This document shows positions 46,119 to 46,775 of a stretch of 64,000 bases of DNA, piece by piece (position 1 is the stretch's first letter; every line of letters starts with the position of its first letter). The position numbers and the translations under genes were made by a program. Under the pieces are notes generated by a model. That model ran no database searches. It was not told where the DNA came from and worked only from the letters and a program-made list of their open reading frames with translations. Source of the DNA: Candidatus Moraniibacteriota bacterium (GTDB lineage Bacteria > Patescibacteriota > Minisyncoccia > Moranbacterales > UBA1568); NCBI GenBank assembly GCA_013334575.1, contig JAAXXG010000001.1, positions 208,315 through 272,314 of the forward strand, read 5' to 3'.

Positions 46119-46157
46119 CAGCACTCGATTCATCCGAATACGAGTGCTCTTTTTTAT
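46119..46157 (+). terminator. Rho-independent terminator after lipoprotein gene
   Basis: cagcactcg...cgagtgct hairpin followed by cttttttatt. Confidence 0.65.
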
Positions 46158-46627
46158 TCAAACCGTAGTTCCTCCCACCGGACCGGATCAGTTTCAAGTG
46201 ATGCGAGGGTCGGATGATTCATGTCCTTCTCGGACAGAATCACCCCTTCCGCGATCGGCCAGTCGATACCGAGCACAGAATCGTTCCACGGGATACCGCG
46301 GTCATGATCTCGGGAATAGACGTCGGCGCATTTGCAGGAGAAGACCGTTTCAGGCTTCGTCGTCAGGAATCCGTGTGCGACTCCGCCGCAAAATGCACGA
46401 CCGCGTCGCATTCCGCGACAAGCGGCTTCACGGCCTCCGGATCGGCGATGTCTCCCTTTACGAATCGGGGTCGCGGATTTCCTTCGGCTTCCCTCAAGTT
46501 CTCCAGATTCCCCGCATAGGTAAGCAGATCGAGCACCACGACCTCGTCCTCCGGGTGTTCCCGCAGGACATGATGCACGAAATTCGACCCGATGAATCCG
46601 GCTCCGCCGGTGACAAGCAGTTTCATA
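46154..46627 (-). pseudogene. Chimeric remnant: rmlB 5' portion (codons 1 to about 85) joined out of frame to rmlC 3' portion (last about 75 codons)
   Basis: 46374-46627 is about 95% identical to 45290-45533 (rmlB 5' end). 46146-46375 is homologous to the 3' third of rmlC (48660-48895). The junction sits at shared microhomology (ccgtgYgcga). The two ORF pieces (46363-46671 and 46154-46411) are in different frames. Confidence 0.8.
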
Positions 46628-46775
46628 TTTCGATACGGAAATTGAACGGGATTCGCATCACAAGTACACATGAGTCCTATGGTAGCGAAAACCCGACAAT
46701 CTCAATCATATTCCGAAGAATCGCCCGTTTAAAATCATTATTTTCCCTTATTTACGATAATATTACCGCCTACTA

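Follow-up and report, generated by a model that had tools for sequence, protein, structure and literature searches.

In bacteria, the novel joints of tandem duplications and illegitimate recombination at short homeologous patches are established, and homology-facilitated illegitimate recombination during the uptake of foreign DNA has been described for naturally transformable bacteria. The chimera of rmlB and rmlC described here resembles the joints of tandem duplications in that the head of the downstream gene is fused to the tail of the upstream gene, the crossover lies in a short imperfect match, and the product is out of frame and apparently non-functional. Fragments of two non-homologous genes abut in end-then-start order with short homology at the crossover, as in illegitimate joints. 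Unlike at tandem-duplication joints, the units that flank the chimera are not duplicates of each other, their spacers are unrelated, and the rmlB and rmlC fragments, which differ from the intact genes by 5.5% and 19%, show signs of having had functional histories of their own. Scars of this kind are known; the site at which this one lies is unusually variable.

We analysed the scar within a 64-kb stretch of DNA, referred to as the window, in which the genes run on the minus strand in the order rmlC, spacer A, SDR gene, rmlC tail remnant, spacer B, rmlB′, rmlC′, spacer C and rmlB, where rmlB′ and rmlC′ are the two halves of the chimera (Table 1). Downstream of rmlB follow, in the same orientation, a NUDIX gene, rmlD, a TerC-family gene, SHMT and rmlA, and a KH-domain gene and the mraZ-mraW-PBP-Mur ligase cluster lie upstream of rmlC. 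GenBank locus tags of the region run from HGB18_01225 onward, and a literature search with the run and assembly accessions gave no match. By Pfam, all four rml genes are intact (4/4); the RmlC protein is 97.9% identical to that of the sister MAG L001 (GCA_013336155.1) and matches solved RmlC structures with an E value of 3e-56, and the RmlB protein is identical to its L001 counterpart. The rhamnose pathway genes remain complete beside the chimera, which in itself would be a harmless pseudogene scar. Intact rmlB now stands behind spacer C, whose rmlB-proximal part is its upstream region, and the ∼160 nt closest to the gene are conserved upstream of rmlB in relatives L150 and L155. The SDR gene is complete at its C-terminus up to a conserved AE, has homologues of 70–77% identity between rmlC and rmlB in other Moranbacteria, and together with spacer A has a GC content of 46–51%, lower than that of the flanks (58–65%). 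A perfect 28-nt palindrome (49290–49317), located between rmlC and the KH-domain gene, is shared with L001 and marks the end of the independent Logan contig L148.

Table 1. Coordinates of the features of the rmlC–rmlB region in the window; promoters and terminators are predictions
Feature	Position	Strand	Basis and remarks
rmlC, intact, 190 aa	48670-49242	-	Pfam full-length match
rmlB, intact, 333 aa	44532-45533	-	Pfam full-length match
SDR-family oxidoreductase gene, 266 aa	47137-47937	-	Pfam adh_short; belongs to unit A
rmlB′, 5′ fragment of dTDP-glucose 4,6-dehydratase gene	46375-46628	-	self-BLAST, Pfam
rmlC′, 3′ fragment of dTDP-4-dehydrorhamnose 3,5-epimerase gene	46154-46384	-	self-BLAST, Pfam
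Joint	46370-46384		three-way alignment; rmlB and rmlC identical at 11/15 positions
Premature stop of rmlB′ frame	46363-46365	-	ORF list and frame arithmetic; four codons beyond the joint
Second scar, 72-nt rmlC tail remnant	47069-47140	-	self-BLAST; directly after the SDR stop codon
Spacer A	47947-48669	+	promoter 48128-48156 (11/12), sA129 48207-48596, terminator 48619-48646
Spacer B	46629-47068	+	promoter 46776-46804 (11/12), sB51 46848-47003, terminator 47033-47060
Spacer C	45536-46153	+	sigma70-like promoter 45770-45798 (12/12), sC82 45843-46091, hairpin terminator ~46120-46150
sA129, 129-aa secreted ORF	48207-48596	+	87% identical in L149, same position
sB51, 51-aa one-helix membrane ORF	46848-47003	+	70% identical to the L001 53-aa ORF
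sC82, 82-aa lipoprotein-like ORF	45843-46091	+	homologues of 62-79%, between rmlC and rmlB in L154/L155
19-nt inverted repeat	45500-45518 and 46593-46611 vs 47088-47106 and 48694-48712		rmlB head, GxxGxxG-coding region, vs rmlC tail; probably coincidental

Repeats were searched by self-BLAST of the whole 64-kb window, which gave three self-matches only: the two halves of the chimera and a 72-nt rmlC tail. The rmlB′ half (46375–46628) aligns to 45282–45535 with 94.5% identity over 254 nt, ungapped (E 1e-111), and the rmlC′ half (46161–46384) to 48677–48900 with 80.8% identity over 224 nt, also ungapped (E 9e-56). An earlier note on this DNA, made from the sequence alone, had proposed an out-of-frame chimeric pseudogene of about 255 nt of rmlB head at about 95% identity and about 230 nt of rmlC tail, and self-BLAST, Pfam and the ORF list confirm this anatomy, the pairwise alignments establishing the homology of both halves. 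The order of the fragments, rmlB nt 1–∼253 and then rmlC nt ∼350–573, is inverse to the native gene order of rmlC and then rmlB.

The two ORFs that the note had placed in different frames, 46363–46671(−) and 46154–46411(−), are both in the ORF list and do lie in different frames. The former matches Pfam dehydratase/epimerase models at their N-terminal ∼89 positions only. From the rmlB′ start codon (ATG, 46626–46624), the rmlB-derived part extends over 251 nt, i.e. 83 codons and 2 nt, and including the out-of-frame run into rmlC′ the reading frame comprises 87 codons. Its coding capacity covers only the Rossmann GxxGxxG region (residues 1–∼84), after which come the frameshift and the stop; the catalytic region and the substrate-binding domain of a functional RmlB are missing. 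The latter ORF matches positions 111–167 of the 168 positions of Pfam dTDP_sugar_isom, and rmlC′ retains codons ∼116–190 and the stop codon (46154–46156) in the original frame and stop register. It lacks two thirds of the cupin fold, and the conserved Tyr of the YK motif is replaced by Cys. This fragment was deposited in GenBank as an 85-aa epimerase protein (NTW45661.1), a public annotation that is corrected here to rmlC′. As far as can be judged from sequence, the chimera is a real, non-functional recombination scar for which no function would be expected; its rmlC tail appears promoterless, and the rmlB′ frame and the rmlC tail both seem to be decaying.

At the joint, the three sequences were compared in register (46370–46384): rmlB reads TCCACGTGCGACTCC, rmlC reads TCCGTGCGCGAATCC and the chimera reads TCCGTGTGCGACTCC. 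The unambiguous crossover is a single G at 46375, so that exact microhomology amounts to 1 nt in the present sequences and to at most 6 nt if one base has changed since; no repeat of 7 nt or longer is found at the joint. A match of 11/15 or better occurs in only 0.037% of all 15-nt window pairs of rmlB and rmlC (p about 4e-4), and the local similarity at the joint exceeds chance. The sequences support a join that would have been guided by short imperfect homology. Of the 9–10 bp microhomology claimed earlier, the short patch stands as an imperfect one, and the exact match of that length does not.

The halves differ in how they have diverged from the intact genes. Of the 14 sites at which rmlB′ differs from rmlB, 12 are synonymous; of the two that alter the protein, one (L32) is a state shared with several functional genes, and only the other (F53P) is unique. 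Thus, the differences in rmlB′ would reflect divergence between functional alleles and not a decaying copy. By contrast, rmlC′ is a mosaic, in which ∼46253–46384 is window-type and decayed and 46161–46252 is of the type found in relatives that carry the sC ORF (C-type). The 5′ 132 nt match resident rmlC at 117/132 positions and agree with it, and not with C-type genes, at nearly all sites where the two differ, whereas the 3′ 93 nt match resident rmlC at 64/93 positions and L154 at 71/93, being closer to the rmlC of genomes with the same type of small ORF beside that gene. Changes unique to rmlC′ (F116V, Y131C, T134A and L146P) hit sites that are invariant in eight functional genes, and those in the window-type part are mostly nonsynonymous. 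With Y131C, the YK motif loses its Tyr, a residue that solved RmlC structures retain as well and that we take to be the catalytic acid. On these substitutions, rmlC′ appears to be a genuine decaying pseudogene and not a very young one. Taken together, the mosaic rmlC′ with its inactivating changes and the synonymous differences in rmlB′ suggest that diverged alleles were joined, and not recently.

The asymmetry of decay, with a neutral-looking first part of rmlC′ and an rmlB′ that seems to have been under selection, is a marginal one (about p 0.045, from very small counts). For one joining event alone to account for unequal decay, gene conversion, a later deletion or something similar would have to be assumed in addition. 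The asymmetry may reflect a later deletion that truncated a still-functional second copy of rmlB, gene conversion that refreshes rmlB′, or chance. For a donor of rmlC′, a protein search returned the ORF itself only, and a scan of metagenomes gave a best match of 72% amino-acid identity and no donor.

Comparison with relatives places the chimera in a larger structure. The gap between rmlC and rmlB in the window consists of three tandem units, and for each unit a different relative has a collinear single-unit locus: type A (rmlC, small ORF, SDR gene) as in L149, type B (rmlC tail, small ORF, rmlB head) as in the sister MAG L001, and type C (rmlC 3′ end, small ORF, rmlB) as in L154/L155. Unit A (49245–47146) is collinear with the rmlC-sA-SDR segment of L149 at 80.9% identity. 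Unit B (47140–46375) is collinear with the rmlC tail, spacer and rmlB head of L001, with identity of about 95% near rmlC that falls to about 55% near rmlB and with conserved promoter-like elements. Unit C (45758–46380) is collinear with the small ORF and rmlC 3′ end of L154 at 80.2%, in an alignment that ends at the joint, and L155 has the natural order rmlC-sC-rmlB. Thus, a B-type unit meets a C-type unit at the chimera (the B|C joint). L001, whose DNA is ∼99% identical to the window on both flanks, has a single B-type spacer of 443 nt with a 53-aa ORF on the opposite strand in this gap, and its homology to the window breaks off at the start codon of rmlB on one side and, on the other, 5 nt short of the rmlC stop. 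In more distant Moranbacteria (L002–L005, L008 and L083), rmlC and rmlB are 15–45 nt apart, and we take this tight spacing as the probable ancestral state. No donor of unit C closer than about 80% and no second genome with the B|C joint were found, and any direction and order of events are therefore tentative.

Spacers B and C have no similarity to each other in the self-BLAST. Each of the three spacers has a predicted promoter of sigma70 type (11–12/12, as matches to the consensus only) before its small ORF and a predicted hairpin after it. The three ORFs, sA129, sB51 and sC82, are mutually unrelated and antisense to the rml genes, and none has a Pfam or NCBIfam family beyond signal-peptide and lipobox regions. 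In the comparison with L149, sA129 is more conserved than its neighbouring genes. It has only two relatives among 1.84 billion representatives, one of which is a 3173-aa protein with six matching stretches; sA129 thus resembles a repeat domain of a giant protein. Gene content also differs elsewhere around rmlB. In the A-type relative L149, two NUDIX genes flank rmlB (8894–9463 and 10711–11259) where the window and L001 have one, and in L157 the SDR gene directly abuts rmlB with no remnant between them; hence, gene content between rmlC and rmlD varies widely in the clade. In a related assembly, on an ENA contig from sample ERZ1426640, the SDR gene is immediately preceded by an IS256-type transposase gene (PF00872), which is further evidence for a rearrangement-prone locus.

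A second scar, absent from the earlier list of features, is the remnant of the rmlC tail behind the SDR gene, which is 97.2% identical to 48675–48746 over its 72 nt by self-BLAST. The junction of SDR gene and rmlC tail lies at the same nucleotide in the window and in L152/L153; L149–L151 also have a tail remnant behind that gene, diverged in its 5′ part, and the more distant lineage L157 lacks it. The SDR proteins of the remnant-bearing lineages are only ∼76% identical to that of the window. As the junction is common to other lineages, the second scar is old. The remnant is non-coding and kept across lineages (1457–1525 in L152 and 8774–8884 in L149), and in L152 the SDR reading frame continues into it. 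Its 97% identity to the rmlC tail of its own genome suggests gene conversion or a recent crossover. Resident rmlC ends in A-type sequence and the remnant has a B-type 3′ end, as in L001; thus, the A|B boundary would be best explained by a homologous crossover inside the tail. For the rmlC tail, no covariation-supported RNA structure was obtained, Rfam gave one chance match only (E 0.74) for tail and spacers, and no tRNA genes were found. A regulatory hairpin formed from the 19-nt imperfect inverted repeat (79% complementary) of rmlC tail and rmlB head was considered and rejected, the tail not being conserved in distant lineages.

One account of these structures, put forward in the earlier note, is a recent tandem duplication of the resident rmlC–rmlB unit followed by a microhomology-mediated deletion; taken literally, it involves no input from other lineages. 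The order of the fragments does fit a duplication joint, as does the similarity at the joint; nearly all discriminating sites in the 5′ 132 nt of rmlC′ have the window-type base, and the unequal decay would fit a later deletion that truncated a still-functional copy of rmlB. Yet a recent duplication in situ should leave units that are near-identical over their full length, and here the spacers are unrelated, each matching the locus of another lineage, with rmlB pieces 94.5% and rmlC pieces 80.8% identical. The 19% divergence of rmlC′, the 3′ third of which is nearer to C-type rmlC genes, and the nearly all synonymous differences in rmlB′ speak against fresh resident copies, and the structure is lacking in L001 in spite of flanks that are ∼99% identical. 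What survives of that proposal is the duplication-type order of the fragments; simple duplication of one unit, the recency of the event and the derivation of both halves from the resident genes are not borne out, and we regard the account as a whole as unlikely. It is quite unlikely, too, that the locus is an artefact in which alternative alleles of co-occurring Moranbacteria strains were strung together in the contig. The sequence is from a MAG; the same submission series includes at least two related MAGs (L001 and L152) in which the locus takes other forms, and an exact run of 52 nt between rmlC tail and remnant could lead a de Bruijn assembler astray at the A|B boundary, where Logan contigs break in the repeated tail. 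No independent contig over the B|C joint (46375) was found, also by exact-protein look-ups for the 85-aa, 87-aa and sC82 products. However, a false join by a graph assembler requires a shared k-mer, and the B|C joint has no overlap of k-mer length but at most 6 nt of exact match; such an assembler would not be expected to make this joint, which should therefore exist in the reads. Moreover, the unique inactivating substitutions of rmlC′ are absent from all functional rmlC genes and thus indicate a separate decaying copy and not a piece of another strain's working gene, and the independent Logan contig L147 (from the SRR11449211 assembly) is 100% identical to 47229–48726 of the window, from the SDR gene through spacer A into rmlC. 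The small doubt that is left, about as large as the artefact reading itself, concerns mainly whether all three units share one cell.

A third possibility is a site-specific cassette system of the integron or tRNA-island kind, in which the rmlC tail would be an attachment site and a recombinase would insert or stack small-ORF cassettes. Scars of island or cassette insertion at gene 3′ ends do resemble the window, in which repeated rmlC 3′ ends separate the units and an SDR-linked remnant is inherited across lineages. A copy of the rmlC tail lies at the promoter-distal end of all three units (3/3), different lineages carry three unrelated cassettes at one and the same site, and the SDR-linked remnant is conserved between lineages about as much as coding genes, or more. 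Unlike such systems, the window has no integrase and no constant breakpoint (rmlC is broken at nt ∼350 in one case and at nt ∼502 in the other), and its units measure only 0.7–1.5 kb. No recombinase or transposase gene was found within about 10 kb on either side, and there are neither terminal inverted repeats nor target duplications, nor any terminal repeats other than the gene fragments themselves; covariation-supported structure and Rfam matches are lacking for the rmlC tail, and at its other boundary each unit has a different gene head. An integron-like array, with its neighbouring recombinase and structured site, is thus not what the locus presents, and we consider a cassette system very improbable. 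Unit C also resembles the product of homology-facilitated illegitimate recombination, in that one of its sides is homologous rmlB and the other an illegitimate microhomology joint, and in that the inserted segment matches the version of the locus in other lineages (L154/L155, 77–80% identity). It differs from such imports in that no close donor was found, and a simple one-step import from an 80%-identical donor fits poorly with the rmlB beside unit C, which is of resident type.

We favour, with a probability of roughly 70%, the reading that the B|C scar joins two diverged forms of a variable cassette between the genes, stacked one after the other, and not fresh resident copies. The anatomy of the locus, the collinearity of each unit with a single-unit locus, the mosaic structure and the decay are direct observations, from which we infer the order of events and the mechanism of recombination. 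The once-tight rmlC–rmlB junction would have become a variable site in this clade of Candidatus Moranbacteria, at which lineages came to carry different inserts (A, B or C), each presumably with a gene for a small secreted or membrane protein on the opposite strand and with its own consensus promoter and terminator, and the genome of the window would have acquired all three in tandem. At the A|B boundary, the old rmlC-tail remnant behind the SDR gene may have been reused for a homologous crossover within the 72-nt tail. At the B|C boundary, an illegitimate join within the short patch of imperfect homology would have fused nt ∼251–254 of the rmlB of a B-type unit to nt ∼350 of the rmlC of a C-type unit. 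The diverged alleles may have been brought together by recombination between strains, or the alleles may have been replaced later by homologous exchange. A two-step history, of stacking and later deletion, is possible, and the uneven decay of the halves weakly favours it.

Beyond the rml region, the alignment of the window to L001 (34532–45534 and 48675–55065) has strongly clustered mismatches, with 22 in 43532–44031, 23 in 50175–50674 and 0–7 in most 500-nt bins, a pattern typical of what frequent homologous recombination between close strains would leave. A second strain-variable spot lies between mraZ and a DNA-alkylation-repair gene (55066–55782 in the window, 1557–3165 in L001), where 718 bp with a small ORF resembling a membrane protein in the window correspond to 1.6 kb with a PALP-family enzyme gene in L001.

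The finding thus concerns a locus that would have been built by recombination between diverged alleles rather than by recent duplication, and a strain-variable site of Moranbacteria at which at least three unrelated cassettes for small secreted proteins and an SDR gene occupy one position. Tentatively, and with rather less confidence than we place in the stacking of diverged units, the rmlC–rmlB gap could be a dedicated exchange site for small secreted-protein cassettes, with rmlC tail and rmlB head as portable homology arms. If so, cassettes would be swapped between lineages and sometimes stacked, and the chimera would be a by-product. Such exchange would give episymbiotic bacteria with tiny genomes a simple means, independent of recombinases, to vary surface or host-interaction proteins. 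The variable rmlC–rmlB site may in this manner bear on the diversification of surface proteins in bacteria with reduced genomes.
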